The notes: generated from the sequence alone by a model not told the origin. Numbered from the stretch's first letter, positions 5,404-60,983 are shown. The stretch: 64,000 bases of DNA from Moniliella sp. 'wahieum' (GCA_003971905.1 RSEE01000019.1:186001-250000); one strand, 5' to 3'. Translations and numbers: made by a program.

Positions 5404-5484
5404 GGCCTCTTGGCGCAGCGGTAGCGCGTGAGATTCCAGCTCTTGGTATCCTCAAGGTCATCCGTTCAAATCGGGTAGGGGTCA
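5404..5484 (+). tRNA. tRNA-Trp(CCA) with a short intron
   Basis: Acceptor stem GGCCTCT/AGGGGTC+A; D arm GCGC-AGCGGTA-GCGC; TT-CCA-G followed by a ~9-nt intron; T loop GTTCAAATC; T-run downstream. Confidence 0.9.
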
Positions 5485-8145: not shown

Positions 8146-8285
8146 AGCTTCAAGCTTCAAGCTTATTCACTTCACCACTAGTCACCTAGCCACCTCAGCC
8201 TGAGGCCCGAGGCCTGAATCTTGAAGCTCTGAAGGATCTGAGACACGGTGCCTGAAACTTTTAATAGTCACTAGTCACTAGTCAC
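8146..8285. repeat. Cluster of period-7 palindromic micro-repeats (AAGCTTC)n, (AGGCCTG)n, (ACTAGTC)n
   Basis: agcttcaagcttcaagctt at 8146-8164; tagtcactagtcactagtcac at 8265-8285. Confidence 0.8.
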
Positions 8286-20540: not shown

Positions 20541-21870
20541 CTTCTCCACTCTGTGTGTGCTAGCTGCGAGCACTGGGAGAGGTGGGACTGGTGTCCCGAT
20601 TCGCATTCTTATACTACACGTTTATTGCTCGTATACCACAAGTGGAGTTCGTGGCTTTTGTATGCTTGTATCTGCCCCCCTCGGTTCATCTGCTTCGTTT
20701 TCCACCTCTCTCTCCAGCTCCCTCGCAGCCCTGCACTCCTACCGCACACACAATCAATGTTCCCTAGACCACGTCCATTTCATTGACAGAGCTTAAGGCT
20801 GGGACAGGGGGAACGCTACGTCTAGACCTAACCGTTCATCTTGCGGGGGTTACTTGGAAGCGCCACCAAGGTTAAGGAACCAGCGGGATCGCCAGGATAT
20901 CAGGACCCTCCGGTTCTCGCCATCCGGTCCCGTACCCTAGGAAGCCCGTGTGGACACGGATGAACGTGGTTGACATCCGAGCGAGGAACCATTTCCACTG
21001 AGACTTCCCTAGTATATTTCTCACACCCTCCCTTCTCTTCCTTCATCTTTTCCGCCTTCGTGCCTCTCGTCCATCCGGGTCGGCCGCCGTCCTGTGAGCT
21101 CGCTGATTGCTCTTGGGCTCGTACCAGTAGTCTCTCTCATGACGTTTGTACCCATCCACTGGAATCCTCCCAACAGCGCATTCGGTCCCGCTACACTTTC
21201 CACCTACTCTTTCTCTCTGGCAGCGTCCCTAGCTGCTATTATACCATCTTTCTCGGCGCCCCCCCCCCCCCTTTAGCCCATTTAGAAGGAAGCGAGGGCC
21301 TGGTTGTTGCCCCAAAGGCTGCGATGTATTGGGAAATGATGCACATACCGGTTCACCTTGATGACCAGGGCACAGTACAGCCAAACTACAGCCGACCTCT
21401 CGCTTGTCAGGGGTCCGGTGTTGGGCCGGGCATGGGACATGGGACATGGGCGTGTGGTGTGGTTAGGGTCGGAGTTGTACCGTTATGCGGTACGCGGTAC
21501 GACGGTCCGCGACGGTCCTCCGTTGTCACATATGCAGCGCCATGGACTGCGCACCATCACCATCTGCTTTAGTTGTTGGGCTGCTATCCGGTTTGGCTCT
21601 AGCACGTAGCTTTCCCCACCCCCATCGCACCCTCTCCATCTCGACCTCGGCCTATCCTCAATCAGTAATCCTCTTGGTTGGTTCGTTACTTTGCTCACAA
21701 CACTGTACAGTGTGGCGCTGTCGACCAGCTACGTCTCGGTAAAAGTGTACTATTAGTTTGCTCGTTGACCTCAACGTTCTTGCAAGTCTCTGGCGTCTAC
21801 TTGTCGCCTACCTACCTCAATCTTCCTGCTCCTTGCCCACGATTTCTTCTTTATCGTCGAGGCCTATCCC

Positions 21871-25427: not shown

Positions 25428-28400
25428 CTACCGTCTGCGGCCAAGCGGGGGAGGAGGCCCGGAGCGCGGCGGCGCACGCTGACCGTACGAGCCATAGCCC
25501 TGTGGCGCCTGCGCAGCCTGGTGGCCATAGCCCCCATAGCCTCCCTGGCCCCCGTACCCCTCATACCCCGGCTGCTGGCCATACCCGCCGTAGCCATAGG
25601 AAGCCGGGGGCGGCTGGGCCGCTTGGCCGTACCCCGCGTACCCTTGGTACCCGCCGTATCCCGCGCCTTGCCCCGCATACCCGCCATAGCTGGCGCCGTA
25701 GCTCGACGGGCCGTAGCCCGGTTGCCCGTAGCTCGCTTGGCCATAGGCCGCCTGGCCATAGCCACCATACCCCTGGCCTTGCCCAGGCGGCGGATACTCC
25801 TGCCGGTAGTTGCCGTAGCCTTGCCCGTACCCCCCCTGGCCATGGCCACCCGCACCTCCGTATCCACCTTGGCCATAGCCATGAGCCCGCGGCTGGCTGC
25901 CTCCGTAGCTGGCGTACTGCGCCGGGGGCGTCGAGTACGACCCAGGCGCTCCTCGGTGGCCACCTTGCCCATACGAGCTATATCCACCCCGTGGCGGCGG
26001 CGGCGGCCCACGCCCCATGCCCTGCGAACTTCCTTCGCCCGTGGCAAAGGCCGGCGGGCGCTGCGGAGCGGCCGATCCACCATTGGCAGCACGCCACTTC
26101 AAGTTGGAAATATCCTTCCCTCCCAACTTTGCCCGCGGCTGCTCCACTCCCGGAAGAAGGATGGCACGGTGAACAAATTGGGCCATAGGTAGCTCGTACT
26201 GCACCGAAATGGACTGGTCATTGGCCACGTCCGGCAGGGCAGGGTAGCGGGTGAAGGGACTGGGGAGAGTGCTGCCCGGGATGCAGGTCGGATCAGGCTT
26301 GACGTGGCCATGGATCGACGGGAGTTTGCCCGTGTCAATCTCCAAGTCGGTGGCCTTTCCCGCGTACAGAGTGGCAAAGTCGTCGTATATCTTGCAGGAA
26401 GAGCCAACAAAAAGGTAGTCATGGCCAAACTCATTCCTCCTTTTTTCATCCGGGGTGAGAAGCGCGGTACGAGCCTCCATCGCATTGAGCAGCCGGGTCT
26501 GGTCGATGAATGGGAGGAGCACAACACCTTGCCACGCATGCTTCTTTCCATTCATGTCGACCTGGAAATCGACAGGATAAAAGTCGTAGATCTCGCTCTG
26601 GGGTTCGGTCATGAGCGAGTGGTAGGCTTCAGGGATGCTCGCCCGGGAGGCGGCTGGAAGCACGCCCATCAGCTGCTCGTACGGATGGAACGGCTCTCCC
26701 TTCTCAAAGTCCACATTCACCGTCTTCATATCAAGGGCAGCCATGTCCTCCGCATAAGGGGCAAAGTGGTAGGGATAATACCAATGCCAAGACGGACAGC
26801 CCTGGTAGTAGTACTTCAACACCCAACACAAGCCCTCAATATAGTGACGCGCCACATCCAGCTTCGACTCTTGGTCGTCGAATGCGATTCCAAATTTGTC
26901 CTTGTAATATTGTTCGCGTGGGGTGCCTTCGCGCGTCTCGACAGACGTGTTGGGTACGCGGTAGTTCTCCAGCAACGCTGACTGGGCCTCTTCCTCCGTA
27001 TCGGTGGAAGACTCGTTTTCCTCCTCTTCCTCAGCATCCTCTTCCTCGTCAGCGGAAGAACGTTTCTGACCCGCTACAGACGGGGGAGGGGAAGTCTTGA
27101 CCTCGGATGTAGGCTCGGCTGTGGTCCCTCCTGCTCGAGTTTCACCTTGCTCTCGGCCTGATCCTCAGATACCTCCTCAGCCTTAGGCTCTGCAGATCGA
27201 TCTTCGATGGGGGGTTCCTCCAAGATTTTGGGGGGCTGGCCGTCTTCAGCATTCGGAGTTTCTGGCTGTTCCGCCTCACGCCCGACAACTGGGCCTTGAG
27301 TTTAGCCGCAGCAGATAGGTTGGCAGCATTGGCGTCCATCTGAGGCATAGGCCGGTGCTTGGTCCCCTGAAGAGGTTTGATCTCCTCATCTTCCTCGGCC
27401 TTGGGCGGACCAGCCATGCGTCTCTTTTTAAGATTCTTCCGAGCGCGTTCACGAGCTCTGCGAGCCTCTTTGACTGCAGTCATCCGATCCAGATCGCGCT
27501 GCTTTTGGGCCTCATGTTGCTCTTTTTTACGCGCAATCAACTCATCTTCCTCGGATGCAATCCCGCGAAGGATGTGATGGACAGCCTCGAGGTTAACGTC
27601 GCCCCCATTGGTTAGGTAGTCCGTCATGCGCTGCAATTCTTGCCGCCAAATCCGCATGAGAAGGTCGATCGCGCCCTCGCGGATGTCCAGCGCGGGCAAG
27701 TGAGGGAGGAAATCATTTCCCACAAAAAAGAAGGAAGACCCAGTCATCAATGGCACGCTCTGCATTGTACTCGAACCTAAGACCCGGCACACGGAGCTCG
27801 ACAACCAAGTACTCCCGCAGCACTGCCACATCAAGGAACACAAATGGTTTCTTTCCGGGTTCGGCCTGAGGTTCTTCCGGTGGATCGGGAAGATCAGGTC
27901 GGGAGCGGCAAGCGCGAGCCATATGACCTCGTTTGCCGCACTTGGCGCAGCCGCGGCTGCGACCGGCTTGGTCAAACACGTCCTCACGCAGAACTTTGAA
28001 GTGCGGCTCGTGGGTCGCAAGGGAGAGGATGATCAAATCGGCATCCAGACCGTAAATGACGTGACGCGTGTTGGGGTCGTAGTCAGGGAAGGAGCGTTGG
28101 CGTCGGACAAAGTCCATAATCTTGTGCTCCCCTTCTCCTGGGACAGACGCGTCAGAGAGGATAACGGTAAGGTGTTTCCACCCCGGGTCCTCATTGATCT
28201 TCTTGGCCACCCAGTATCGGAGAGACTGGGTAAGACATCCATAAATGGCGTGCCGGGGGTAATCGCGTTGGAATCCCACGATGTCTTGGTCAACTTGGCC
28301 AGTTCCTCGTCAGGGATGGGTTCCCCCTTGGCCCGGAGGGTTGCCAGCTTGGCCGCGTTCTCTACCCGTTTTTCTTCAGCCTCTTGAGCTGCCCGGAAAC

Positions 28401-28827
28401 GACGCGAACGCTGTTGGTTCATTTTAGCACGGGGGGCAACACCGTCAATCGCCATCATCAGAACACGACGCGGGCGGATCATGTTGACAACGCGTTCGGT
28501 GTAACGCAGCACCTCGACCATCATATCCTCCTCGGTCTCAGGGGCCGGACGGCCTTCAGGATGGGTACAAGGATGCACAATGCCATTCATGTCAAGGTAC
28601 AGACAATCGAATTCCTCCCCGTTTGGATTGGGTCCGCTCATGTCGACCCCTAGCCGCACGTCGCGGCCATCCTCACCCCCCCCACTACGACTTGTTCCTC
28701 CTCCTCCTCGACCGCCTGGACGATCTTGGGATACCTTCGCGTCAACCAGCGGAAAAGAGCAGGGACACCCTTTTACGGCGACAGTCAGCAGAGCTCGAGC
28801 AACAAAGAGTGGGCAGACACGTACCAT
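25428..28827 (-). CDS. RAT1: 5'-3' exoribonuclease 2 (Rat1/Xrn2/Dhp1), frameshifted
   Basis: ATG | intron 28770-28824 | [71 protein letters not shown]; zinc knuckle [40 protein letters not shown]-rich tail. Confidence 0.96.
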
Positions 28828-28969
28828 CGAGTCGCGTGGTGGTGGTGGCAAGGACCGATGCTGCGCTGGATCGATTCCCCCTGTGGTTCAACGGTCACCG
28901 GCGATGTACATGAGCTTGAACATTCAATGCCGTCCAGCGGCAGGCGGCCGGCGAGCCAACCGAGTCCCG

Positions 28970-29352: not shown

Positions 29353-31787
29353 ATGGCGCGTGACGCCTTCTTTACTGCTCAAGCGCGCATCCCCCCCTGC
29401 ACGTGGCGGCGAACCGAGGGATCGAGGTGCCCCTCGTGGCCGGGGCGGTGGTAGCAGGGGGACGCGCGGCACTCCCCGTGGCCGAGGCGGCCATGAATCC
29501 GGAGGCCGTGGAGGCGGTGGTTGGAGCCGGACGACTGATGGACACGGCCATACTGGCGATGAGTCAGGCTCTCATGGCGTGGGAGGGGTGCATTTTCTGA
29601 CTCCCGAGGCCGTGGGAGGGGTGGATTTTCTGATTCACGCGGCCGTGGCCGAGGCGGCTTTTCCGAATCGCGTGGCCGTGGTCGAGGTGGATTCAGTGAT
29701 TCGCGAGGAAGGGGCAGTTCCCGGGAGGTGGCCGTGCAGGCTTTCGTGGGATCCCACGAGATCACGGATGGGCAAACGTTTCCGACCGCCCCCACTCTAA
29801 CCAGCCTGGCGAGGGGTTGGATGATTCTGATGCGCCTCCCGCCAAGCGGATGCGCCAGGGCCCCCCTCACCGACCCAAGTCCAAGCCTCGTCGCGAAAAG
29901 CCCGAAAGCGATGAAGAGCCGAGGAGCCCACTTCGATTTTTGACAAGGACGCGCTAGACTTGTCGTCGCACCCACTTCCTCCGTTTGACGACTTGGTGGA
30001 CACACTTTCTCAGTTCAAGCGGCTGCGGAAGCTCAATGTAGCGTCCATCGAGCCTAACGAGGAGCACTCGGAAGGGCAACTCGCTCTCATGGCTTCAAAA
30101 GGCGGTTGTCAAGTCCAAGTCTTCCGCGCGCAAGGCCTCCAAAGAGGAAGATTCGCCCCTGGAGTGCGTGATTTGTGGTTTGGGCATGATTTGACGACAC
30201 TCAACCTGTCTGCCAACCATGCTCTGGGTGAAGCCCACTCCAAGCAAGGCGAGGAGGTTTTCAGTGCTACGGCCTTTCCTACTCTTTATGGTTCGTACCA
30301 CTCCTTCATTTTTTTCACCATTATCGTTCGCTGACCTTGTATCCCCCTTCAGCCTTGGACCTGTCCCATACATCCTTACATTCGCTCCCTCTCTTGACTC
30401 TGCAAACGTCCCTCCGTGCCCTGGTTCTCACCGGAAATGAGCTGACATTCTGCCTACGCTTCCACTCCTCCCCAACCTCAACACACTCATTGTGTCCAAG
30501 AACAAGTTGACCAGTTTACCTTCTACGCTCCCCAGTTCGCTTCCCTCGCTCAAGAAACTGAGTTTGGCCAACAACGACGTGAACGATGGAGCGGCACTGC
30601 CAGACTTCACGCCCTGTGGGACCTGCGGGAAGTACGGCTAAACGGAAACCCCAAACTGATTTCTCTCCCGAGCCACCTGTCTTCTTGGGGTCGCGGCCGG
30701 AATGGCACAGCACCCGGCTTGGACCTATTAGATTTGGGTCGCTGCGGCTTCACCTCTGGGACGCTTTGCAACCTATCCTACAACTTGGGCAGGTTGCCTC
30801 AACGGGTGGACACCGTGGCCTGCGCAATCTCAACTTGAATGGCAATCCACTTTTCGACTCGGACGACCCGGCCGAGGTGGCAGCAGCGCGGGAGCGCATT
30901 TTGCAGGTTCACCCAGGCCTGCGTACCTTGAACAATGACCATATCGGCCCTACAAAGAAAGTGGGCGACGACAAGCCCGAGGCGGAGGATGAAGACAAGG
31001 CCGGTGCCCCCGTAAAGCCTACAGCCTCTGTGGGGCAAAAGCGCAAACGGGATGAGGACCAACCCACCACAGCCCCTGCCCCTGTCCCTGCCCCTGTCTC
31101 CACAGGAGAGGCGGAGAAGGAGCACGGCAAGCATAAGCGTGGCGCACGGGGTGGCAAGAAGAAGAAACACACTGAGGTTGAGACGACGGTTTCGCTGGAG
31201 AATGTACCCGTGCCTGAGCCTGAGCCTGAACCTGAAGAGGAGGAGGTGCGGTCCGACTCGGAGGATGAGATGATATCCAAGCGGCAGCTGGAGCGGGACG
31301 CTCTGGCCGACGCGGTGGCCTTGGATGCGGACGAATCGGATGACGAGATGGCAGGCGTCCCGGACAAAGCTACGGCCGAGTCGTATTTGGTGGAAGCTCC
31401 AACCGACAAGTCCAAATGGGTGGACAAGACCTTTGACGACATAAAGAAACCTGCGGAGGGTGGTACCCTGGGCAAGGGGCCCACTAAGAAAGTGTCCAAG
31501 AAGCCACCCAAAAAGGCGTCCACCAACCTCTTGGCTGGTCCAGCTTCGACGGCCCGGCCTGGTACTGGTGCCAAGGCATCAAAGGAGGAGCAGAAAACTA
31601 AGAAGGAAACGGCTGCTGCAGAGGTGGACCGCAGTGCCGTGGTCGGTATCGTCGCTGTTGATAAGAAGGCCGGCAAGAAGCGTAAGGAAAGTAAGGCGAT
31701 GGCCCTCCCAAGCCCCGTCCTTCCGCTCCTGCTAACTTTGGACTTGGAGGGGGAGGTGCATGGGGTGGGGGACAATCGAGCTGGTGA
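29353..31787 (+). CDS. Leucine-rich-repeat protein with RGG-rich N-terminus and acidic/Lys-rich C-terminus (frameshifted)
   Basis: RGRGG repeats at ~29400-29730; LRR units LRKLNVAS, LTTLNLSAN, LNTLIVSKNKLTSLP, LKKLSLANN, LRNLNLNGNP; KHKRGARGGKKKK; probable end GGGGAWGGGQSSW*. Confidence 0.75.
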
Positions 31788-32899: not shown

Positions 32900-33988
32900 G
32901 AATTCACCTCTAGCTGGTTGGTAGATTACATTCCAGGTTTAATTCATGGGCAGCAGTTTCCTTTCGGAGGGATCGCGATTGTGGGTCGTCGTCCATTGCT
33001 GCCCCAGAACTAGAGCGGCATGCCCCCGGACGAGAATGTCGGGCTGCCGCATGATTCGACTGCGAACCTCAGTAGGGAGGGTATTCACCCACTGCATCAC
33101 CTTCTCGGTGGAAGCATCGGGCTGTCGGGGGAAAAGTTAATACCGATGCTCGTCGTATTGAGACCGACGTACCTGGATCCACAGCGATCTGGCTCGCATC
33201 TTGAGCGCCACCTTGGATTTTAGTAACGCTTCCTTGGGTCACAGGAAATCACTACACCGGCCTTGGATACCAAATCGGGAGGACAGTCGGACAGGTGATG
33301 GTACACCGGTAGCCCAAACGTTGCAGCGGTAAAAGTCATGTCACCTCCCACTAAGCTTGGTAGAGTCCTGGTGAGAGAGAAGGATAAGTCAGTACCACCC
33401 CCGCGGATCAAGAATCCCGTCTTACTCCTGCTGCGAAACCAACGCTGAACCTGGAAACGATAAAATCAGAAACACTGCCATCCCAGATCAATGAGCGCTG
33501 CGACGTACCTTGTGGGCCGGTGACTGGATGTTAGTGTCGACACCAACGATCAAAAAATGTGGGGCCTGGAAGAAGTTCTAGGGAGAAAGAGATGTGTTAG
33601 TCGTGTGAGCAGTCCTTCTCTCACATGCGACAAATGCGCACAATCATGTCGGCAGAAACCATCCAGTTTTGCGGTTGATTATGGCGCAGAACGTTGCGGC
33701 ATACCCCCATGAAGTTGGGGAGTGAGGTGGACGGCAGGAGCGAAAGACCAGGTGGGAGCGGCAATGGTCGCGGCGGTACCCTGGGGGGTGGACGCGCATT
33801 GCGAGGGCTTTGGCGCGCGTTTTTTCAAAGAAGGCAGCGCATTCTTAATGCGCATGTGACCCGACATGATCAGAGTGGTAGCGGTGGTGAAGGTTTGCGG
33901 GAGCGATGATGGTAATTGTGTGTACATGGATCCGGCTTGCATTTTTGAGGAAAAGAATATTACTTAAGACAATTTCATGCAAAAAGAG

Positions 33989-34085
33989 CGTTCCATGTTG
34001 GGCTCGAACCAACGACCTCCCGATGCCAAAGGGCAAAGGCCGTCTGTTTAACGTCGGACGCTCTAGCCAACTGAGCTAATGGAAC
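33989..34085 (-). tRNA. tRNA-Asn(GTT) with intron; U33 apparently missing in the assembly
   Basis: Acceptor stem GTTCCAT/ATGGAAC with G73; D arm GCTC..GAGC; anticodon stem TCCGA/TCGGG; loop reads C-GTT-A; T loop GTTCGAGCC; TTTTT terminator. Confidence 0.8.
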
Positions 34086-34464: not shown

Positions 34465-37400
34465 TGTTAAGCCATCGGGTGGCTCGTGCTTTGTGGCCAA
34501 TGTCCCTTCAGTTCCTCCTCAAGCCTGGGAGTTCCGTTGTTTTCTCTCTCTCTTGTTTTTCCGTTGCGCAGCTTAGCCCCTGGTGGCGACTCGCTGCTTG
34601 TTTTGTTCCTCTGTAGGCGTTGCTGGTTGGCTTAGACCACCACCACCACCAGTATGATTGCATCACCCTCGAGGACCATCAGGACTCCAGGTCTCATCAG
34701 AGTTACAACTCTTCGCTCATCCAGAAGTGAGCAACGCGGTGATCAACTCACAATTCTCTTTCTCATCCCTCACACTCTCCAACCATTTCCTTCGACGTCT
34801 TTTCAGCAATGAGCGCCATTCCACTTCCTACCCCTCAGCTTTCGAACCCGGACTGGCCGACGAACACCTTTCGTCTCCTTTTCCTAAAGACGGCATTACC
34901 TTCAAACACGCATCGCAGCTGGCCAAAGAACAGCTTAGCCAAAATACCAAACTCTTTACCATATTCTTGAGGATCACAACCCTCTGGTGGCCAACGGGAA
35001 TGCACCTGATTTTCCAACCCGTCGCGCCTATATTTCAGGCAAACTCTCAGCTCTCGAGCAAAAGATCGTGAAAATGATCGGCGATCCTACTAAGCTGATT
35101 CCCAGCGATCCGTCTTCCCAGATGACTGTCGCACGTAAATTCAACGACTTGAGTGCTCTATTTCACCGCGTTATGTTGGGTTTTTGTGATTCATCTTGGT
35201 TCCCCTCTTCTTCCTCTCAGCAATCCTCCGAAATGTCTGAACCTCCTGTGGATCCTGCCGCAACCCCACGAGCAAGCGTCCCATGTTTGCCTGATGTGGA
35301 AAACATTACTGCTGTCAATGCTTCCGTTTCTCCGCCAATCGACGATGAGATGATGTCTATGTTGACAAGGCTCAGCTCCACTAATGTCTGCGAAGTGTCT
35401 CCTGGACGCGGCCCAGAAAAGGTGGTGTGCCGAAGCGGGCGTGTCAGCTGCCATGGCGGTGCTTGACAAGACCGTCTCTGCGAAGCAATTGTCCACACAC
35501 GTCCTCATCTGTGCCTATACCCACGAATGAGGAGCCCTTCCATCTCTGGCAAAGCTTACACGCGGTATCAACACTACGGACAAGTACATATCGGACAAGA
35601 CTTTTGGGCGTGGGCGGACTTAGTTTTGGACCGCCTTGATGATGCAATGAGTGGTGCACGTGAGCTTCTTCGAAATGGCGAAAGTGATCCTCACTAAAAC
35701 AGCCTTCTGGACCGCAAACTCCACGCTCCCCTCATGGCCCACCTTCACCGTGATGTTGCCTCGACTATTCCCTCTTCTGAGACTGAAGGCATGGCTTCTG
35801 CGTGTTCCGCATTCTACTTCAACATTACGGTCGGTCATCCCCCCGATCGCGTGGCCCTTTTTCGGCAAAAACTTGGTGATCTTAATATTGGCATCTGGTC
35901 CGGCGCTAAATACGTGGAACGTCTTCACCGCAGTCTCATTTATAAGCTACGGATGCGCTCGGGTTCTCCACCTATCCCTAACTGGTTGTTTAGCACATTT
36001 TGCTCAATGGTTTGCACGATCCCAATTTTACGGCGTCACATCTCAATGACGACTATGACCATCTTTTGATGATCATCTCCGATCGTGAAGCCATACGACA
36101 GCCGGTGTTTTCCCAGAGTGCAACGCAGCGTTCGACTTTGCGCCCCTCCCCTTGATCTCACCCATCCTGTCCCCGATAACCCCCAAGATCCGTCTTTTAT
36201 TCCTCTCTTCGCTCTTAACGTTCCCAGCTCTTCTTTCATCCTCCCATCTCCCTTTCCACTCTCGACTTACCCCCTTTGTTAAACATCTTATTCCCATGCC
36301 CAACACTTCCATGATCCCTGCCTCAAACTGTACACTTCATCCTCCTCTTGCCTCTGCCCTCGACCACACGCCAGACGAGGACGCACTTCTCGTCACCGCC
36401 GATGATGTTCCGTTGGCACCCGAGTCTGTGCGGTATCTGTCGCTACACCCTGCTTTTGACGATGTCCTTGCTGCCATGCGCGTTGAGCTAACGCGTTTTG
36501 ATACTCGGAAGGTGAAGAACGTCGAGTCCATTCCTCCAGGGGACGTGTACTACCCGTATCTGGGTCCTAAACATCAAGACAGATGCAGAGGGGCGCTTTG
36601 TCAAATACCGTGCCCGCTATGTCGTGGGGGGGGGATCATCAGCTACCCGGGTCGTGGACCAAATCGTTTGCTCCCGCGGTTCGCACTTCAGCTGTCAATA
36701 CTTTGATTGCCATCTCCGAGGAGGAAGGGCTCCAGCTCTTCACAGCCGATATTGAAACCGCTTATCTTGACGCTGATGTCACGGAAGAGGTCTATGTTCG
36801 GCCTCCTCCCTTTTTCTCCGAAGGGAAGGGCAAGCGCTGGAAACTGAAAAAGAGCCTTTACGGATTACATCAAAGCGGGGCTAATTTTGGTGATTGGCTG
36901 CATACTTTCCTCTGTGATCGACTTGGGTTTACCAGTCTCAAGTCAGAGAGCCATGTATCTTCCTTTTTCGTCATACCGATTCCCTGAACCTCATTGTCTT
37001 GGCGATCCACACTGACGATTTCCTTGTTGCTTGCCGTTCGGAGGAATTTTACGATTCCTTCCTTGTCGAGCTTCGTCGTCATATTGAGATTAAACCCAAT
37101 GGGCCCCTTCGTTTCCACCTCGGATGCCATGCCAGTACGACCGCATTTTGATGGCCGTCTCTATGTGAGCCAGCCGAAATTCATTGCTGAAACGAGTTGC
37201 TACCCACGACATGACCCATGACCATCCTCGGCGTCTCCCCCTCAGCCGCACCCTTCCCCCCCCAACGTCCCGAGCACGAATCACGTTCGACACACGCGAC
37301 GAGAATCACGCCTACCGCTCTATGGTCGGGTCCGCTATGTGATCGGCACGCATGTCACGCCCGGACACATTATTTGCCGCCACCTTCATGCATCATGGGA
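34465..37400 (+). mobile_element. Decayed, 3'-truncated Ty1/copia LTR retrotransposon
   Basis: Putative 5' LTR TGTTAA..CATCA (34465-34699; left edge uncertain), then GAGTTACA PBS, gag and integrase remnants, and RT (ADIETAYL, LKKSLYGLHQSG, IHTDD). Many stops and frameshifts; no 3' LTR seen. Confidence 0.85.
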
Positions 37401-38154
37401 TAAGCGGAGCGATGGGCGGGAGAACGCCGCCTTTTTCTGGGTGTTAAGTATTAGAGATCTCGTTTTGGATGTGGGATCTTTTTTGGATAGTTTATGGGGT
37501 CTGTTGTGGGATAGAGCAGAAGTGTGGGTCGGTGGCTCTCGGGATAAGCTAGGCGTTGGCCCTGTGAACTCTGAGGCTCAGCGCTCCGGCAGCATGACTG
37601 GCACGGCGGGTCCACGTGGGCGGGGCAGAAGGCGGGCGGGGTAGCGTGTGTTTGGAGCATGGGGCAAGTGGGGCCCGGACAGAAGCCCACCGTGGTTAAT
37701 CGGTGGAGGTGACCACAGCAGCTGAAAAGTGCAATTCCATCTGCTGACGGTGAAAGTGATGAAACATTGGGTGCTGCTAGCGACAGGGCGGCAACGTTCA
37801 ACTTGAACGTTCAACACGGAATCGGCTGGTGGAAGCCAGGTGGAACCGCATGAAGCTGGAACCTTGAACGTTCAGGCAGTTGGGGTTTGACGCTTGGTGT
37901 TCGCGCTCCTCTCGGCTCCTCCCGCGCCTCCACGCTCCTCGTGCTTCCTGCTGTGCTCCCCTCGTGCTGCTTGCGCTGCAGCAGCTTGCCGTCTGCTGCC
38001 CCGCCGCGTCCTTCATCGCCACCACCATCCGCCGTTTCTTGGTGTGGCTGCGTGTGTGTCTGTCGGTCTGCTTGCCTCCCGGCCCTTCCCTCCTCCCTCC
38101 CAGCCCCCTCTTTTCCTTTGCTCCTGCTCTTCGTCCCGTTTGCTCCTCACGCCC

Positions 38155-41331
<3,177 letters not shown>

Positions 41332-49990: not shown

Positions 49991-52627
49991 ATGCCGTCCC
50001 ACCGCATCAAGCACTTCCCAATGGTCAAAGAGCATGGGCTCACCACTCAGCTCACCACCCTGGTTTCCCTCCCTGTTTCCACCTCCTCTTCCAACCCCAT
50101 TTTGCGCCAGCCGGCGCCCGACTTCGACATGCTTGATCACCACGGCCAAGTCCACACCCTGCACTCCTATATCTCCATGGGCAAACCAGTGGTCCTCTTC
50201 TTCTACCCGCTCGCGGGCTCGCCCTTTTGTACCAAGCAGCTCTGTGCCCCCGCTCTATGCAGCTCGTCGCGCCTTCCTTCTCTCCTGCCGCCGTCACCCT
50301 CATCGGTGTGTCACAAGACTCGCCCACCCGCATCGCCCAGTTTGTCCAGCAGCACAGCATTTCCTATCCGGTCCTCTCCGATGTCGACCGCACAGTACAC
50401 AACGCCTACGGCGTAGGCACCATCCTTATGGGCTCATGAACCGTAAGTCACTAGTCAATAGTCACTAGTCCTTTCCCGCCACCGGCACCCTGACCGACTG
50501 ACCCTTCATGTTTCTGATTTGCCTTTGTTTGTTGCACCTTGAACGTTCAGAGCGCACCACCTTTGTGATTGACACACGGGGCATTGTTCGAGGCTCCGCA
50601 GAGGGTACATTCAATTACAAAGGTCACATCAAATACGTCGAGCGTTGGCTAACTCGCATCGGTGACGAGGAAGCATTCCTGTCTCAAGGTGGCCCAGCGG
50701 CCGAGTTGATCCAGCAGCGCTTTTTCGACACAGCCCCAACACCGTCCCGTCTCACCTCCGAGCCTCAGGATACACCATCAGAACCCGAGGGGTCACCCTT
50801 ACCGGCAGCCGTCTACGCCTCCTCCCGGGTCGCCACTAGCTCAGGTCTCATTCGCCCGTCCCAGGCTGTGGTCAATGCTCTCCGCACCGACGTCTCAAAT
50901 GAAGAACTGAACAGCTCCGGCCCTCTATCCAAGTTGGCTCCCGTACCTGCGCTCACACACTCTTTACTCTCTCCGGAGCCGCCTGTGTACGAGAACGTGG
51001 ACGAGAGATCCAATTCTAGCTCCCTCGCTCCCTGGAACAATTCATCCTCCACCAGTCGCATCAGCCCCTCATCCAGTGAATGGCAAACTCACTACCAGAG
51101 TCAACCGCAGAACAATTCCTATCCCGATCTGAATGCCCCATCACTTCTCCAAGGCATGGGCTTAGAACCGGCAAGCCCTGAGGCGGTATATGGTAGCCCA
51201 TTGCAGCAGACTCCATCAGCCCGACCAAGCGGATGGGCCCCAAGCATCACGAGCCTCTTGGGCGCAGACGTGCCCTCGCGTCCTCCAGCTGATGACTCGA
51301 TCTCTGAACCGGATTCACCCTTGGACCAAAACCCTCCCATCGCGCGGCGGACTCGGCCATCCAACGTTGTCTCCACAAGAGGATACGAGGAGAACGAAAG
51401 TGCTTCCGACTCGGAATGGTCGATTGCCAATGATTTTCCCAGCCCTGTACATGATTCTGTTGCGGAAGACGCACCGATACCTCCAAAGGCACAGTCCATG
51501 GCTTTGGGCGGATATCCGTCACCCCACTTCTCTTTCATACCTCTCAGTCGGACTCGAACCTACGCCGGTCCTCTAGGGGACACAGTCGCAATGGCCCATG
51601 TATCGCCGGCTCCAGTACGCGAGCCAGCTTCAACTTGTCTTTACCTTACTCAGCCACGAAGCGGGGTGGAGAGGCGCACGAGAGTGTGCAATCCCCCAAC
51701 CGGGTTCGGGTTCACCAAGGCCTTACAGAGCCTCCTGTTCCTTCACTTCCATCTGGTTTACCTCTTATACCTGAGCAACTTGGCTTGACTACACCTGATG
51801 CGAGCAATGCGAATGGCCTTGTGCGCGTGGGTTCTACACCTACTATCAACCGCCCCCCTCCGATTATGTCGGGCTTCAAACAACTTGGTCCCCATGCTGA
51901 TTCAGTCAGTTCCGATTGTCGCCCTTCTGCGTCACTCAGCGTTCCCAATCCCACTGGGTGCACAGGTGACCTTACCGTACCCGAGGACTCCGGAATGGTC
52001 CCAGCCCTCGCTGCTTCTAACTTATCGGTAATCGCACCGAGAAAACGCACTTCTGCCCCTGTACCTATGGCTCCTCCTCATCCCCCAGCGCAGGAATCCC
52101 GCCCCACACTTTTAACCCCTACCTCTGTAGCGCCAAGTTCGTATCTTGAGCAACGCGGTTCTGGTGAAGTCCCTCCTTCATTTTCCCCCCTCGTTTTGCA
52201 TACCCCGCTTCCATCTGAACGCGGCAGTGTCAACCAAGATGTCACCTATCCCCGCTCAGCTCCGTCGCGGCTACGTTCCGCTAAGTCTTACAACACCCTA
52301 GCCACGGAAACGCTTACGCCGGAACACTTCCGCACCCGCGTGCGCTCCCGTCCCACTCGTAACAAAGGTATTAGTGCAACTCCTTCCTTCTCTACCGTGC
52401 CTGGATACCAGCATACAAGTACTGCCGCCTCGGGAAACCAGGCCCTCTCCCCCAACGCGGGGGTGGGTGCGCGTTGGGTTCCCCCTTCCCGTGGCGGCTC
52501 CACACCTTGGCCCTCCAACATTAGGCGCCCCTTATTTTCCTTGGGCCTGGAGCATGCCCACTCGTCCCCCAACTTACTGGACTGGGAAAACCGATTCGGG
52601 CTGCCCCTCGACAAACGACGGAGGTGA
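49991..52627 (+). CDS. BCP/PrxQ-type peroxiredoxin domain followed by a long Ser/Pro-rich disordered tail
   Basis: APDF..VVLFFYPLAGSPFCTKQLC (PxxxSxxC, CxxxxC); LIGVSQDS; YPVLSD; intron 50443-50550; RTTFVID. The frame stays open into ORF 50508..51788 and, after a shift, 51635..52627. Confidence 0.75.
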
Positions 52628-53093
52628 GGCCAACGTCGCTGCGTCACCCCCACTATTCTATAGAACCTGGGCATGATTCTTATATATAAGTTCCATTCTT
52701 GTGTGTCTTCCTGTGCTGGGGGTATATTGTGGGTACATAATACCTCTTTTGGTTCTCTGTCCGGTTTCCTGTCAACCAATCGTCAACGCATTCATGTGCG
52801 AGCGACAGCGGAAGATGGCGTCGATATTGGCACGCTGACGAGATGGAAAACACAGTGAATGCGGTAAGCGTCAGACGAATGTGAAAATGGAGACGTTGTA
52901 GAACGCGGATGTACCCTTCTCCCTCATCCGTTCATCGGGAGAGCGGTGATATATGATACCAGTGATAGGTGGCAATATCGGAGAAGAAAGGAAGTGGGAT
53001 GGGCTAAAAAGCTGTGGAGGCGTGTCTCCTCCGCATGTCCACTACAGCTTTGCCAAATCCCATCACACTTCCGCTGTTTCTCCTAGAGGGAGA

Positions 53094-54420
53094 TCATCGA
53101 TCAGTACCTAGGTACTCAGTACATCGGTAAGTACTGAGTCACAAAAGAGGCACTTGTCACCCGCACCGGTCACTAGGATCATCGATCACGGGTCACTAGT
53201 CACTAGTCACAGATCACTTATAATCATTTTTGTCGGAGGAACATGTGCAGCATCACGCATCACACATACGTGGGGAAAAGACGGCACCGCTAAACGCCAG
53301 AAAAAGGGAAGTGGAGACCTAGTAAGCAACGGAGGACACGGTATATACTGCACACTCACAGTTAGTACTTAGTAGTCCTTGCATGCTGAGGGCGCTGAGG
53401 AATAGACGTCCAAAATGATTGCGTTCAGTTTGAACGCGTTCAATGTCAGCCATGGATAGGAGTTATCTAGTTATTGAACTCAAAATTGGCATCATGCAAA
53501 AGAGGAATACTTTGCAGTATCTCCCCGGTGCGACAGAGTGCAATGGCCAACGGAGTACCAATAACCGGATGTGACCTGTGTTGACAGCTTGGTCCGGCTA
53601 CGTACGTGTAGCTCTCGCAGGCCACACGTACGTGATCGAGATCGATCACGATCACCGACCGAGTCTGATGGATTCTCAGGTGTGGGGCCGGTGGCCGGTG
53701 GAGGAGGAGAGGGCAAGAAGCTCGGCCGAAAAGGGGCACAGGCACTGCAAATAAACCTATAACCGTCGGCACGGAGATGCAGGGCCCCGATCACACAGGC
53801 ACAGATAGTTCAGTACTCAGTGGCACAGACACAACAGCCACCCACACGAAAGAGTGTCTCTGCGACATGTGGAGAGATGGCCGTACAATCTGCTTCTCCC
53901 AAAAATGACTTCGCGGTTGGTACTCCCGAATACTCAGTAGTGTATACTCAGTACTCAGTACTCCGAACTCTTCACAGTTCAGAGTCTGAATACTCTCGAA
54001 CTCATCGAACTCATCAGCAATCAATTAATCAATATTCAATACTCAGTACTCAGTATACACTCACCGATGAGCAATCAGCGCTAAGCCGTCGCCATTACCA
54101 TCTCTCCTCAGGCCTCAGGGGCCACAGGCCCCTCAGGCCTCAAGCTTCAAGCTCCTTCAAAAACCTTAGGTCCTTTTCAGGATCGGGGGATCGGTACTCA
54201 GTTGAGTACTCAGTGACTAGTGACTAGTGTGGCAAATGAGAGCCGCGAACAGTTCCGCGACTTGTTGTAACCAGATTGGCTGAGACTTGAGAAGACTTTT
54301 GAGAGTCTCTAAGGATCTAAGTCTAAGATCTAACGTGGCATATGCCATGTGATGCGTGACACCTTAATATGTGGCCTTAGGCCTTAGATCTTAGAGTAAG
54401 CGCTTAAAGCCGTATTGAAC
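53094..54420. repeat. Dense field of period-7 palindromic micro-repeats (TNA + 4-bp palindrome)
   Basis: TCA-TCGA-TCA-GTAC at 53094; (TCA-CTAG)n at 53193; (TCA-GTAC)n at 53945-53963; TCA-GGCC-TCA-AGCT-TCA-AGCT at 54133-54153; GGCC-TTA-GGCC-TTA-GATC-TTA at 54373-54393. Confidence 0.85.
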
Positions 54421-55620
54421 ATCAGTGCACGTCACACACTGAGCAACTGCTGCCCAGGATAACACTCGCCCCGTTCTATGTTGTGGCGAGGCTTGGGCCA
54501 GTGTATTTCCAAGCTACTGCACTGGCGGGGCCCTTCCAAAGTCCCGTACAAGTGTGTTGTGGGGCCCGCAAGCTTTTCAAGCTTCAGCGCGCTCAGCGCT
54601 TCAGCACTCCAACTTCGTCGACAACATTTACTGACACAAAAGAGTATAGTTTCTGACTTGGTAGTAGATTACAGGTCGTACCCCCGTAGGATGGAGGCTG
54701 TATAAACCGTTGGCCAAACAGGGATGGGGCGAGAACCACGCGGTTATATCTCATGCGTGTGGATAGTCGCGCCCAAAACCGGCCACTGTCATTATAAGCT
54801 GCCTCAGGCCTTGGCCTCAGGCATCACTAGCATCACTAGCACTGGCAATTGCAATGTGTGGTCTTGCGAAAATGGAAATGACGCCTCCCGGGTACGGCCT
54901 TTGGTGGTGAATGCGGAGTTGTGTGTGCAGTGCTTTTTGGCGACTGCGGAGTATGTTGCAGTGTGCATGTTTTGCACACACTACGCGAGAAGAGTCACTG
55001 GTACGATACTCACAGTCACTGTATATTGTCACTAAAAGGGGTTTCATCGCCACGAAACGCTCTTTGCAGGTCCTATATTCATCGATGTGGACGTTCAACG
55101 CGTTCACCACATTGCAAATTAACACTATTCCATGCGGTACATTGGGCCTCAGGCTGAGGGCTGAGGCCTGACCTCAAGCCTCTCAGGGTAGTAAAATCCC
55201 CCGTCGACATCATGCTTGAGGTACAGGAGAGGGAACGCACATATAGCTGTGCAAGAGGCTTCTGCCGAGTGATGGCCCGAAAACAAGGTGTAGTACTATT
55301 ACCTCTTCACTCCGAAGCACGCAGTATAAGGCCATATCAATCCAACTGTCCTCCAACCGTCGGTCCCCTCAAAATTCATGTGCACTGGTACATGCAGTGC
55401 AGCTGTCTATACCGTTGTATAGTGTCTCGCCTCACGCGTCGCATTAGCCCCCCGCGATCACCCCACGTCTTTCCACAGTGGTAAGCCATGTGCTGTTATG
55501 CCGAGAGAGACAAATATAGGTGAGTTTTGGATAGGACACTCGCTTCTTCTGCCCGTTAAAAGAAGGAGGCAGTGAGACTCTTTTGTATCGGTATCGGCCG
55601 GTATAACGATGATAAGTGCG

Positions 55621-55780
55621 TGTTGACATCCGTCCTAGGACCGCGCGGACCCTGAGTCACGTGAGTCAGCTTTCATTCCTTCCGAGCTCGCACCAGTCTT
55701 CTGGACGAGTCAGTCGCAGAAGCTTCTTAGTCCAATACGACGTTCAGTGCTCACATTCTGTGGTAGTAGCGAGGCCGACA
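55621..55780 (+). repeat. 5' LTR
   Basis: Direct repeat of 60488-60647. Confidence 0.98.
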
Positions 55781-55832
55781 GAGTTACATCCTTATCTGCT
55801 CATCCCTGAGCTGGCCAAAACTACACCCACCC

Positions 55833-57069
55833 ATGGCGCCAACGCTAACACCGATCTCTCGGTCAGCGACACCACAATGGTGAACAAGCGCGATTACTGG
55901 ACACCAACCGGTCGCGATCCGCCACCGATTGGCACCGACAACGAGGAACTCATGATGCTTTGCGCCGAAGCGCACCTGTGGTTCAAGAAGACGAACGACA
56001 TCGATGTCGTTAAAGAGAAGATCAACAGAGCTATACACGACAGAGCCGAGTGGCTTGGATGGAAGGACGAACCTACGTCTATCACGACAAACTGGGTTCG
56101 ACGGGCTACGAATTTGTGGTGCAAAACATCCACCAAATGGAAACTCAACCCAACGCAACTTTGGGGGCACCTACAGGCGCAGCCTCGCGACCCGAGTACG
56201 ACCTTTACAGATCACTACGCGAGTCTCCCACCAAGAATATCAAGTGGCCTGATCTGAACAAAGACCCGTCCGCCTACAGCGCTTGGAACGAATTTCTCTT
56301 CGCGATAAAGATGCCCACCCCCACGCAAGCGACGTCGTCCAGAATGGTCGCAGCTCCCGCTACTTCACCGAGGACCTCGACAGACGCTTGCACAACCTTC
56401 TTAGGGAAGCCATGCCGTCAACCCTCTTCCGGACGATCCGCACCCACCACGAAATATCATGCACCCAGGACACGCTGAACATGCTGCGTCAGCGGTATGG
56501 ATATACGCCTACCGCAAACAGAGGGCCTCTACTCATTCGCTACTTTCGGCCCGACCAAGGAAACCGATCGGGTCGAGACTACCTCGACTACATGGAAGAG
56601 ATCAGTGCAAGCCTGACGCGAGCGGGCATCCCACTTACGGAAGAGCAGGAACGCACTGGGATCCTACTCGGCTTACGCGACATGAGCATTCGCCAGCGTG
56701 AAGAGCGCTCGAGTCTAGACAAGTTACGGCAGGCCGTGATGGACATACCAGCCGCCACGTATCCCGTGGAGAAAAAGAGAAACGGAGGCAAGCCGGTCAA
56801 CGGAGGAACGCCTTGGACTCGACCCGACAGCGGGGGACGACCCACCAGCGGGGGAAAAAACTCCAGCGGGGGCAAAGCCGGCGACGACAACCTCGCGGAC
56901 ACAAAGACCAAGGGGCAAGACCGCACCAACCAACCCTGGCGCAGCGCGACGTCTAATAAACCTGTTGTCCTCCGCGCAACCCAGGCCGAGCCAACGCTCA
57001 CGTCGCTCAGAAGCGAGCTCTCCCGAGTCTGAAGTGATTGACGTTGATGCGGGCACAGCTGACTACTAG
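55833..57069 (+). CDS. gag: Copia Gag (frameshifted in the assembly)
   Basis: ORFs 55616..56257 and 56283..57032; DYLDYMEEISASLTRAGIPLTEE..ILLGL is UBN2-like. Confidence 0.75.
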
Positions 57070-60000
57070 GAACTCGGGGGCGAAATGCGAATCATCCGGG
57101 CATTATATGACAGTGGGGATTCCATCCATTTGGAAACAAATCCGTCTTCACATCCATGACCCCTTGCGACGACGAGATAGGTTGCTAACGGGACACATGT
57201 AAAGGCGGAAGGACGAGGCACGGCCACAATCCGTATCCGATGCTTAGGAGACACCAAATGGAGATAAAACTCCCCAACAGCCTATACATGCCCCGTTGTC
57301 CCGAAATCTCGTCAGTGTAGCACACCTGTCGAACACCGGAATCGCATCATACTTCGCCCCACACCAGAAGGGTATCTGGCTTGGTAACCCAGGATCCACC
57401 CTACGAAAAGTAACCGGCAGTGACTATCAATTCACGATCTTACACAACCCGCGAACGCCACCCACACCCCTGCGGGCCATGGCGACCAAACCGATCAAAC
57501 CGGCCGACCCACCCTCACCCCAAACTCCCTCGCAGCATCCCTGGCCCTGGACCACGTCTCTAAAGCCCACAAACGCTGGAACCACGCAGCCATCGACCTC
57601 CTCCCCTGGCTTACACGATCGGAAACCGCAGGCCTCCGCGTCACAGCCAAGCATATCTCCCTCTGTCGTTCAGAGTGGGATTGCCCACATGCGCGGTGGC
57701 ACTAGCGACAGCATCGCCCCATCCGAGCCGGGACCGCCTCCGATCCAAAGACCTTTCGAGGTCCTCCACGTCGACGTAGTAGACCTCCCCCGGGTAACCG
57801 GCATGGGGCACGGATACGCCCTCGTCGCCGTTGATGACTTCACGCGGTACGTCTTCACCACACGATCCCGACAAAGGGCGCTGCAACGAAGGAACTGCGG
57901 AACCTCATATTGCGGGAGCAACGCTACGGCCCGGACAGACTGCTGCGGACTTTGCGCACGGACAACGCCCCGAATTGACAAGCGCACTGCAACCTTTTCT
58001 GGACGAGCAAGGCATCACGTCAGAACGACATCCCGGGGCAGAGTGCTAGCAACGGTTGGCTGAGCGTGCCATCCGAACCATAACGACTCGTGCAAGGCAG
58101 TTGCTCTGGGTACAGGTCTTCCGACGTCGGACTGGTGGAACACAGCCTCCACGCTGCTGCTTCACCCAAAACCAAATGCCACTCAAAACATCCGGGGAAG
58201 ACAACAAATCGCGATTTGAGCGATACAAAGGCCACGCATACTCGTTACCGATGCAACCCTTTGGCCGCGTTGCATACCTCCATCTGCCCGAGTCACGCCG
58301 CGAGCACAAGCTCAGCGCGCGGGCAGAGGAAGGTATGCTGGTAGGATACCACCATCAGCGCGGATCAAAGGGATGGCTCTTCGCCACATACCAACCATCC
58401 CTGGGTACCTTCACCTACCGCTGGTCGAAACCGTACAAATGGGGCAACGCCATCTACCCCCATCTCCACCCCGACCACTTCCCACCCGACATCTCCAAAT
58501 CACCTCAAATTAAAATCGACAGTGAAAAAGACGCTAACCCTACTCCGCCAGCCGCGGCAGCACCCATGCCCCGAACCGCCGCCACACCCCAGACACCCGC
58601 TCCCACCACCACCCCCCCTCCGCGCCGCTACCCCTCCGCCAGCGCACCACCCGCACCTCCCTCGACCTGCACACACTCCCAATCGCTGACGACCCCACCG
58701 ACACGACCTACCATGCTCGTGCTGCAGCCGCCACGCCCCACTGCGCCGCACCAGAGATCGGCATCGCCCGCCCCCTACCTGACACATCCGCCCCCCCGTT
58801 TGCCGACACAGTTCAACCTCCCGAATACGCCGCCATGACTGCTCTCAGCGCACCCATCCACCCGGACACGGTTCAGCTCACCAAGGATGGCGTACCCCTC
58901 GCTCCCAAGACGCTCAAGGGTCTCGAGACTCACCCCTCCTTTGCCATGGTCAAGCAGGCTATGGCCGACGAGGTGGCCACACTCGCGCGATACGGCACCT
59001 ACGAGGCTACGTACCCACCACCGGGTGCACAAATCCTCATAGGACTATGGCGCATCACCACAAAGACGGACGCCGAGGGCCGGTTCCTGCGCCACCGCGC
59101 GCGCTTTGTCGCGGGCGGACACCAACAATCGGCCGAGACTTGGGGCCAGACGTTCGCACCATCGGTGCGCACACCTGCCATCCTGACCCTCGTCGTGCTG
59201 GCCGAGAAGTATAAGTTTGGCCTCTTCTCGGCGGACGTCAATGCAGCGTACCTGAACGCCCCCCTCGAAGAAGCAGTCTACATCCGCCCACCCCCCTACT
59301 TCCCCGAAGCGGGTGGTCGCGTGTGGCGTCTCAAGAAGAGTCTATACGGGCTACATCAGAGCGGAGCAAACTGGGCACGATACATCCGGAACCTGCTGCG
59401 TGACAAGCTCGGCTTCACGCAAAGCTTGACCGAGCCCTGCTTGTTCGTGCGCGCTGCACCACCGGGTGAGCAGATCCTCCTGGCGGTCCACACCGACGAT
59501 CTGCTCCTCGCATGCAAGTCACACCAAAAGTACGAGGAGTTTATGGCCGAGATAAACACACACATTGATGTTCGTGGTAACGGTCCCCTTCACTACCACC
59601 TGGGATGCCAATACGATCGGATCGGTGGGGAGCTGTACCTGAGCCAACCAAAGTTCATCGAGGAAGTGGTGGCAAAGCACCACATCAAAGCCCCGTGGAT
59701 CCGGACTCTCCCACATCCCGTACGGATGATACCGCCCCGTGCCGACCCTGAACCCCCATCCCTCCCAGCCTTGCGCAAGGCATATCAGGGGAAGATCGGA
59801 TCGGGACTGTGGGCTGCACGAATGGGCCGGCCTGACTCCCTCTTCGCTATCACGGCCCTCAGCAGAGCCGCTGCCGACCCATCGCAGCAGCATCATCAAG
59901 CAGTCGATGACTTCCTTCGCTACCTGTACCATACTCGAGGAAAGGGCCTGAGGTTGACCCCAACATCAGATGCACCGGCCATTGCGCTGTATACAGATTC

Positions 60001-60493
60001 CGACTTGGCGGGAGATCCCATCCAGGCACGCTCCACATCTGGATGCCTACTGATGGTGTACGGTGTGCCGGTGTCGTGGCGATCCATTCTTCAGCCGAAG
60101 AGCGTTACCAGTACCGCCGCCGCCGAATATACGGCAGGATATGATGGACTGGTTGACGCCAACTATGTCAAGAACATCATGATCGAGCTTGGGGCCATCG
60201 GCGAGGGTACACCCATTCATTGGTATTGCGACAATAAGTCTGTCGTCGATCTCGCCCACAAATTTGGCAGCACCGGCAAGCTCCGAGAGCTGAAGATCCG
60301 GTACCACAATGTACGGCAACACGTGGACTCGGGCGAGGCCATACTTGTACACATCCCCGGCGAAAGGAACCCAGCGGACGTCCTCACCAAGCCTCTCGGC
60401 CGTCCCGCCCTGACAAGCCATCTTGCTCAACTCCGCGTCGAGGAGATGGATCCAGTCCACATGACTGGGCCCTCCGGTCAGCGGGGGTGTTGA
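57070..60493 (+). CDS. pol: Copia Pol: protease, integrase, reverse transcriptase, RNase H
   Basis: LYDSGDSIH and VANG (PR); LHVDV, VDDFTRY, LRTDNAPE, AERAIRTI (IN); RARFVAGG, DVNAAYL, LKKSLYGLHQSG, HTDD (RT); YTDSD..RSTSG, AEY, CDNKS, NPADVLTK (RH). The stop lies inside the 3' LTR. Confidence 0.95.
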
Positions 60494-60647
60494 CATCCGT
60501 CCTAGGACCGCGCGGACCCTGAGTCACGTGAGTCAGCTTTCATTCCTTCCGAGCTCGCACCAGTCTTCTGGACGAGTCAGTCGCAGAAGCTTCTTAGTCC
60601 AATACGACGTTCAGTGCTCACATTCTGTGGTAGTAGCGAGGCCGACA
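60488..60647 (+). repeat. 3' LTR
   Basis: Direct repeat of 55621-55780. Confidence 0.98.
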
Positions 60648-60983
60648 GTGCGAACTGTGTCTTTGAGTCCAGAGGCTTTTCCTCTTTAAAGATTGTTCAC
60701 ATGCACCATAATGGATGAACACCAGGCGTGACTGTTGGTGGGTTTTGTGGTCAAGCTTCGCATGTTGTCTTGCGGATATAGCACTGCCACACCCTGGCAC
60801 AGACGGTCTGAACCATCAGAAGGAGCACTCCCTTATGCTGCCGCCTGCAGCCAAGGATTGGTCATTGCCGGTCATGCAATCACAACGTTGTGTGGGCTAC
60901 ATAGGATAGCTTCATAATTCCAAGAAGAATCACATCCTCGTCGGCTGGATGCCGCGTTCATTAGTTGGACCCACTCAGTGAGA

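Follow-up and report, generated by a model that had tools for sequence, protein, structure and literature searches.

We found that the period-7 repeats in the non-coding DNA of a 64,000-nt window from Moniliella sp. 'wahieum' (GCA_003971905.1 RSEE01000019.1:186001-250000, the whole stretch analysed here) are built from one stereotyped object, a 7-bp insertion scar at T-N-A sites. This should replace the hidden grammar, a T-N-A triplet alternating with any 4-bp palindrome, by which the first-pass annotation had described the interval 53094-54420. The underlying T-N-A-palindrome pattern is real, highly non-random and window-wide. On balance, we take it to be the insertion-excision scars of a hairpin-type DNA transposon, itself unseen, that makes a 7-bp duplication centred on T-N-A; that the pattern is a mutational scar and not a code is a claim we hold with more confidence than the identity of its agent. 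The most fitting reading is of repair scars, thousands of years old, that together form a dense fossil record in non-coding DNA.

Across the whole window, T-N-A triplets flanking a 4-bp palindrome (TNA-pal4-TNA) occur 70 times in 54 clusters and those flanking a non-palindromic 4-bp spacer 139 times, a ratio of 0.504, as against 0.026-0.092 for the 15 other X-N-Y flank pairs in the same DNA. Markov shuffles of order 1, 3 and 5 (100 each) give means of 8.5, 7.2 and 14.3 such matches and maxima of 19, 15 and 28, and the strong enrichment of palindromic spacers over this kind of background, for which a count had been suggested, is thereby borne out in the window. The excess is limited to the 4-bp spacer when other lengths are compared, with observed versus expected counts of 34 and 31.2 for 2-bp palindromes, 70 and 13.1 for 4-bp, 5 and 2.4 for 6-bp, and 0 and 0.5 for 8-bp palindromes. 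All 16 possible palindromic 4-mers are used, and the eight examples from which the grammar had been drawn, at 53094-53107, 53193-53209, 53945-53963, 54029-54038, 54108, 54133-54153, 54214-54229 and 54373-54393, have exact coordinates on re-checking. Tandem Repeats Finder recovers many short period-7 arrays throughout the window, beyond 53094-54420, and exact tandem duplications number 36 at period 7, 7 at period 8 and 9 at period 9. A 6-bp palindrome lies inside 15 of the 36 period-7 duplications, in every case (15/15) of the A....T form; six-base palindromes overall show no excess in the window (1006 versus 1000 expected). For control DNA, a metagenome scan with a 19-nt array matched at least 127 stretches, and the 126 loci analysed (738,479 bases of unrelated contigs) have a ratio of 0.047 (143 versus 3018), computed with the seeded CTAG unit left out. 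These 126 loci carry the GTCACTA unit as single heptamer arrays, without the multi-palindrome rule.

The unit itself is revealed by what surrounds the palindrome. The two N positions of the 70 matches hold the same base in 53, complementary bases in 12 and unrelated bases in 5, and no flanking consensus is found outside the motif. Period-7 identity continues for two extra bases on one side only: among 50 distinct runs, the direct repeat measures exactly 5 nt and has T-N-A at one of its ends in 23, one run extends symmetrically by a base on each side, and four have no extension. Since identity reaches two bases past T-N-A on one side, the elementary object is the 12-mer [TNAwx][x'w'][TNAwx], whose middle two bases are the reverse complement of the repeat's two non-TNA bases. 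A site yz-TNA-wx thus acquires a 7-bp insertion, and the palindrome is copied from its own flanking dinucleotide. With identical N, the 12-mer occurs 53 times on both strands together, against 0.25-0.73 in shuffles (maximum 7) and 0-6 for each of 15 other triplet shapes.

This specificity emerges equally from searches that presuppose less. A blind scan for [U5][reverse complement of its last or first 2][U5] yields 38 and 41 matches, with 3.9 expected for each; most have T-N-A at the far end, and the P-nucleotide side faces away from T-N-A by about 27:1. In the corresponding (4,3) scan, 26 of 33 matches have A with a matching T before it, both T and A being required. Among all forms [abc][pal4][abc], T-N-A accounts for 53 and other triplets for 1-11, including the self-complementary ANT, CNG and GNC at 2-11. 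Identity runs at offset 7 peak at length 5 (87, versus 49-59 at offsets 4, 5, 10, 11, 13 and 14). N is C or G in 43 of the 53 12-mers and in 381 of the 550 available sites, a preference too weak to claim. The notion of "any 4-bp palindrome" therefore stands in that all 16 are used and falls in that the identity of each is fixed by the dinucleotide flanking T-N-A.

These properties bear directly on whether the pattern is read by proteins. A cis-regulatory grammar, in which factors recognize TNA-N4-TNA geometry or A....T hexamers and selection maintains them, would suit the location of matches in promoter-like blocks, such as those upstream of bZIP and XRN2 genes, and some A....T hexamers presumably resemble known factor sites. 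We nonetheless regard it as very unlikely, given the use of all 16 cores, a palindrome dictated by the neighbouring dinucleotide, and an N pair that is directly copied rather than complementary in 53 of 70 cases within flanks lacking a consensus. A replication error is a second candidate, wherein fold-back or template switching on a quasi-palindromic T-N-A yields a tiny inverted triplication that then slips. The 12-mer can indeed be written as U, its reverse complement and U overlapping at T-N-A, mismatch correction at N could explain 53 direct versus 12 complemented pairs, and small inverted triplications arising from replication errors are described at the scale of ~150 bp (PMC13334657). However, it leaves the strict need for T and A unexplained (ANT, CNG and GNC reach 2-11 versus 53), the copy is always 2 nt, with pal2, pal6 and pal8 at or near chance, one switch junction would be without microhomology, and exact 16-mers with a 7-nt repeat (see below) do not follow from it. 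Polymerase fold-back as the main cause, which had been offered at the outset, is accordingly improbable.

The interval first described is part of a 3-kb non-coding block between a serine/proline-rich ORF (50502-52624) and a copia element (55620-60648). Its scars, and one just beyond the range of the first-pass annotation, are as follows:

53092-53103, core 12-mer of the form [yzTNA][z'y'][yzTNA], GATCA-TC-GATCA; identical copies lie at 53177-53188 and 17403-17414
53192-53210, heptamer array TCA+CTAG of 2.7 units, read as two successive scars of a single site or as one scar plus slippage
53362-53373, single 12-mer TTAGT-AC-TTAGT (N = T)
53810-53821, single 12-mer TCAGT-AC-TCAGT, with a direct repeat of exactly 5 nt
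53945-53963, heptamer array TCA+GTAC of 2.7 units, near-inverted partner of 54040-54055
53996-54015, period-9 product of 2.2 units, the 7-nt repeat AC-TCA-TC plus palindromic GA
54029-54055, 12-mer TCAAT-AT-TCAAT followed by a TCA+GTAC array
54106-54153, composite site with CCTCA-GG-CCTCA (54131-54142) and TCAAG-CT-TCAAG (54140-54151)
54203-54229, complemented-N 12-mer TGAGT-AC-TCAGT with a 2.6-unit TGA+CTAG array after it
54322-54333, 12-mer TCTAA-GA-TCTAA, with a period-8 variant alongside
54373-54395, composite site with CCTTA-GG-CCTTA (54375-54386) and TTAGA-TC-TTAGA (54384-54395), from one ancestral CC-TTA-GA
54822-54841, period-9 product CA-TCA-CT plus AG

In-phase switching from one palindrome to another does occur as originally stated. 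Five sites in the window show it, and it reflects no code but arises as a by-product when the same site undergoes such events repeatedly. Three of the five reduce fully to a single ancestral site (CC-TCA-AG at 54131-54151, CC-TTA-GA at 54375-54395 and GC-TGA-TG at 17280-17307), one does so in part (53092-53107) and one does not (9155-9175). At the reducing sites the left palindrome is the reverse complement of yz followed by yz, and the right palindrome is wx followed by its reverse complement. Removal of both 7-nt inserts from 54106-54153, for instance, leaves CC-TCA-AG, so that the switch from GGCC to AGCT there is a left-flank scar next to a right-flank scar. As a switch consists of both flank scars of one site, no rule that admits any palindrome is needed. 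Within this block, 53939-54061 forms a 22-nt near-inverted pair, 79 nt apart, whose mismatches fall solely at the N of the TCA+GTAC units; the unit reads in one and the same strand form in either arm, although the outer flanks are inverted.

Two further blocks and one isolated duplication complete the sites that we discuss individually:

7647-9801, second dense block with 18 TNA-pal4-TNA matches; 8146-8164 and 8265-8285 are arrays, and there are period-9 products that form exact 16-mers
10895-10913, 9-nt TNA-centred duplication, absent from the paralogous copy 20777-20968
17210-17414, block upstream of a bZIP gene, in which 17280-17307 is one ancestral GC-TGA-TG site scarred once on its left flank and twice on its right

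Many sites have undergone more than one event, more often than random re-hitting would give, and this calls for either re-targeting of scars, each of which would offer a perfect 7-nt odd palindrome, or slippage. As the origin of the pattern, ordinary microsatellite slippage of heptamers, with preferential expansion of hairpin-prone (quasi-palindromic) units, could draw on these multi-event sites and on the arrays of 2.6-3 units. A microsatellite changes by whole units in any frame, whereas most instances here are 12-mers of 1.7 units (the modal length) in a fixed frame and the unit switches at five sites; neither the T-N-A specificity nor the flank dependence is explained. Because a 7-bp tandem duplication cannot yield a fixed-frame object of 1.7 units, we reject slippage as the origin, rating it very improbable, and the first-pass annotation was right that simple slippage should show no preference for palindromes with many different identities.

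Minor products hint at the cutting geometry. A scan for longer repeats of the type [U7][2 nt][U7] gives 8 and 9 matches versus 0.24 expected, and the period-9 form with T-N-A in its centre, [yzTNAwx][x'w'][yzTNAwx], occurs eight times (controls 0-3, shuffles at most 0.06), as four exact 16-mers and four full tandem 9-mers. The period-8 intermediate [zTNAwx][x'w'][zTNAwx] occurs five times versus 0-2 in controls, and 12-mers whose second N complements the first seven times, again versus 0-2. All product classes fit a 7-bp duplication yzTNAwx, symmetric about N, with palindromic nucleotides at one copy's end, and the other copy is trimmed by 2, 1 or 0 nt in 53, 5 and 8 cases, respectively. The products predicted for no hairpin opening ([yzTNAwx] twice) or for opening by 1 nt number 4 and 6 in the window, no excess over the 0-9 of controls, the period-11 product that keeps both overhangs is absent from it (0), and the visible 5-nt repeat is simply retained no more often than chance would give (13).

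We propose a four-step cycle by which such products could arise. A cut-and-paste transposon, absent from the window, would insert at nnTNAnn and duplicate 7 bp (yzTNAwx); a dimeric transposase with 7-nt staggered cuts would be expected to leave exactly such a duplication with a symmetric T-N-A core. On its exit, both flanks would be closed as hairpins exactly at the duplication edge, in the manner of RAG/Transib, MULE and hAT systems, and host nucleases would then nick each hairpin open at a distance of about 2 nt from the tip. The two flanks would thereby acquire self-complementary 3' overhangs of 4 nt, one reading wx x'w' and the other z'y' yz. End joining would retain one overhang and drop the other, for a net gain of 7 bp; the product would be yz TNA wx x'w' TNA wx, or the mirror image of this. 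Lesser trimming of the second flank would give the +8 or +9 products, and opening at 4 nt or more from the tip would carry the complement of N into the joint, potentially producing the complemented-N minority. Each scar would then hold two T-N-A sites, one of them inside the perfect odd palindrome, and repeat visits, aided by slippage, would build the heptamer arrays, with use of the left versus the right flank yielding the in-phase switch between two palindromes. The suggestion that these are hairpin-opening footprints of a nuclease or transposase is supported by the observations: like P-nucleotides, the inserted half reverse-complements the flank next to it, and a sharply defined 12-mer unit is accompanied by a 7-nt TNA-centred repeat in the minor products.

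The transposon as actor is our inference, since the window contains neither an element of this kind nor a transposase: searches there recovered no inverted-repeat (TIR) element flanked by 3-, 5- or 7-bp T-N-A duplications and no DNA-transposase Pfam domain in any of 148 ORFs of at least 120 codons. Several other geometries were set aside. A 3-bp T-N-A duplication with a palindrome formed from 2 nt of each transposon end conflicts with the occurrence of all 16 palindromes and their match to the flank, and a 5-bp duplication with P-nucleotides on either side conflicts with the ~27:1 asymmetry and the 7-nt repeats. A hairpin tip at N, TA targets and an LTR-integrase 5+2 scheme do not, on paper, produce the observed 12-mer; the duplication of the copia element, GTGCG, lacks T-N-A.

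The distribution of the scars supports the transposon reading, and their density counts against it. Eight non-coding blocks spread over the window, 9,037 bases in total, contain 51 of 53 core 12-mers, and none (0) lies within the young copia element with identical LTRs. When core 12-mers more than 25 bp apart are counted separately there are 43 loci, 30 of them outside any stop-to-stop frame of at least 150 codons and the remaining 13 under frames that look spurious. Besides the missing actor and the product counts given above, two observations count against a transposon: 43 loci in ~9 kb is a very high density for excision scars, to our knowledge far above anything known for transposon footprints, and four of the eight period-9 cases are full tandem 9-mers. 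The density, together with the confinement of scars to promoter-like and intergenic blocks and a 64-kb window free of transposon or transposase, would favour a host or domesticated hairpin-forming nuclease that repeatedly cuts T-N-A in open intergenic chromatin, with no mobile element involved and the scars as its repair products. We think this unlikely, in that a 7-nt direct duplication needs a staggered cut filled in before the hairpins form, which an insertion-excision cycle supplies, and no candidate gene is seen in the window. The arrays also occur as inverted pairs 0.1-1.5 kb apart, as might be expected of decayed subterminal repeats or termini from one transposable-element family, an origin that had been kept in view from the start. 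Self-BLAST of the window, however, finds no similarity between the eight blocks and no family common to them; its matches are confined to the copia LTRs, a single 200-bp pair and tandem repeats of local extent, and the inverted arms differ exactly at N, so that both carry the same strand form; descent from one family is therefore the least probable of the readings weighed here.

A dispersed pair of ~245 bp in inverted orientation (10860-11104 and 20777-21010, 77-81% identical) has indels that are not multiples of three, and shows neither an Rfam match nor terminal inverted repeats. It provides the sole in-window check of ancestral state: the copy at 20777-20968 lacks the duplication at 10895-10913, and the repeat is therefore the derived, inserted state. 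As the duplication-free copy already carries the palindrome ACGT, this particular case may be a plain tandem duplication.

The window is eukaryotic and resembles fungal DNA, and its other landmarks are:

5404-5484 and 33988-34085, two tRNA genes, both longer than 71 nt and probably intron-bearing
25431-28887, minus strand, XRN2-type exonuclease gene, whose best named relatives are fungal with at most 50% identity over the aligned part
55620-60648, complete-looking, young Ty1/copia LTR retrotransposon with 162-nt LTRs, 100% identical, and TG...CA ends

One of the tRNA genes is tRNA-Trp (CCA), and the anticodon of the second is unreadable for ARAGORN. The copia element has rve, SH3_retrovirus and RVT_2 domains over several frames and the 5-bp duplication GTGCG; in a metagenome scan, its reverse transcriptase gave 95 pattern matches, of which none was confirmed. 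A lone RVT_2 fragment at 36571-36984 (E 1.8e-19) is likely an older, degraded copia copy, and several T-N-A scars lie just past it (37386-37865). Other repeats include two telomere-like units (GGGTTA GGGTTA) at 8769-8782 inside an intergenic block, a 33-bp tandem repeat of 2-3.6 copies (29578-29705) that lies immediately upstream of the XRN2-like gene, and ~103 copies of the hexamer GCTCAA (86% matches; 39622-40227) within the long open frame 39338-41011, which would encode a dipeptide-like repeat.

If the transposon reading is true, palindromic heptamer repeats would constitute a readable log of visits by an element that is itself unseen, with each scar recording which site was targeted, how far the cuts were staggered (7), how far from the tip the hairpin was opened (~2 nt) and how the host tends to join ends. 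Excision scars could then rival point mutation in shaping promoters (43 loci in ~9 kb), microsatellite-like arrays could arise from repeated insertion and excision and not from slippage alone, and [TNAwx][x'w'][TNAwx] would serve as a simple signature of the same process in other eukaryote genomes. More speculatively, and as a possibility we rate as rather doubtful, an undescribed cut-and-paste system with a 7-bp stagger on T-N-A and flank hairpins might be, or have been, so active in this lineage that its scars, and not its copies, are a leading source of non-coding indels. Each scar would recreate an ideal palindromic target and, consequently, further events would be drawn to existing sites in a self-reinforcing manner, lengthening heptamer arrays there and supplying promoters with new 6-bp palindromes. 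The interest of the pattern lies mainly in the density of the scars and in this way of building repeats; the open-access literature that we searched on TNA target sites, Harbinger footprints, templated insertions and 7-bp duplications contains no description of it.

Among known sources of repeats, a palindrome bound by a transcription factor is a poor likeness, as there are 16 different cores here and N is a direct copy in 53 of 70. The cut-and-paste superfamilies come closer. Target duplications are 8 bp in hAT, 8-10 bp in MULE and 5 bp in Transib elements, and the hAT target consensus is nTnnnnAn or nnnTAnnn, as distinct from the 7-bp duplication centred on T-N-A seen here. In place of the 8-bp hAT duplication, the repeat is 7 nt (nnTNAnn) in full and 5 nt in the main class, with 0 and 2 matches in the (8,2) class; the P-nucleotides and short deletion typical of hAT scars are matched by a 2-nt reverse complement of the flank and trimming of the other copy. 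A 5-bp Transib duplication with hairpins on both flanks disagrees with the ~27:1 sidedness, the 7-nt repeats and the chance-level count (13) of plain 5-bp duplications. The window has no element of the hAT, MULE or Transib type that combines terminal inverted repeats with a DDE transposase. PIF/Harbinger and IS5-type elements target TNA or TWA with a 3-bp duplication, and PIF/Harbinger thus shares T-N-A as the target core. PIF/Harbinger elements are described as excising precisely, with the staggered duplication serving as microhomology (PMC4561436). Here, by contrast, the repeat is 7 nt (5 nt visible), taking in 2 nt of one flank or of both, and every event leaves a scar, of 7 bp.

A 7-bp target duplication is shared with Galileo and Dada, and we know of no P-type excision that gives flank hairpins. 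Transposons with 7-bp duplications do exist, as in the account of Galileo (P superfamily), whose near-palindromic consensus GTAGTAC (PMC2775673) is centred on A-N-T rather than on T-N-A. Small inverted triplications share the direct, inverted, direct layout and are reported to span ~150 bp with 6-bp junctions tied to Okazaki ends (PMC13334657), whereas the insertion here is a fixed 7 nt at T-N-A. In hAT, MULE, Transib and RAG systems, as reviewed in PMC5499845, hairpins form on the flanks and are opened by Artemis/Pso2-like enzymes of the host, after which end joining leaves footprints; Ac/Ds footprints in Candida albicans are reported to consist of short deletions or of palindromic P-nucleotides inserted on either side, two products being dominant (PMC5873905). 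Unlike Ac/Ds scars, those described here have the palindrome axis exactly at the duplication edge and not on the complement of the adjacent base, and unlike those of hairpin-on-flank transposons generally they are dense enough to build arrays, with no element in the window. What they share with the footprints of that class (Ac/Ds, Hermes, MULE, Transib and V(D)J coding joints) is a retained duplication combined with P nucleotides and a short loss on the far side, resolved into a few dominant products (PMC5873905, PMC5499845).
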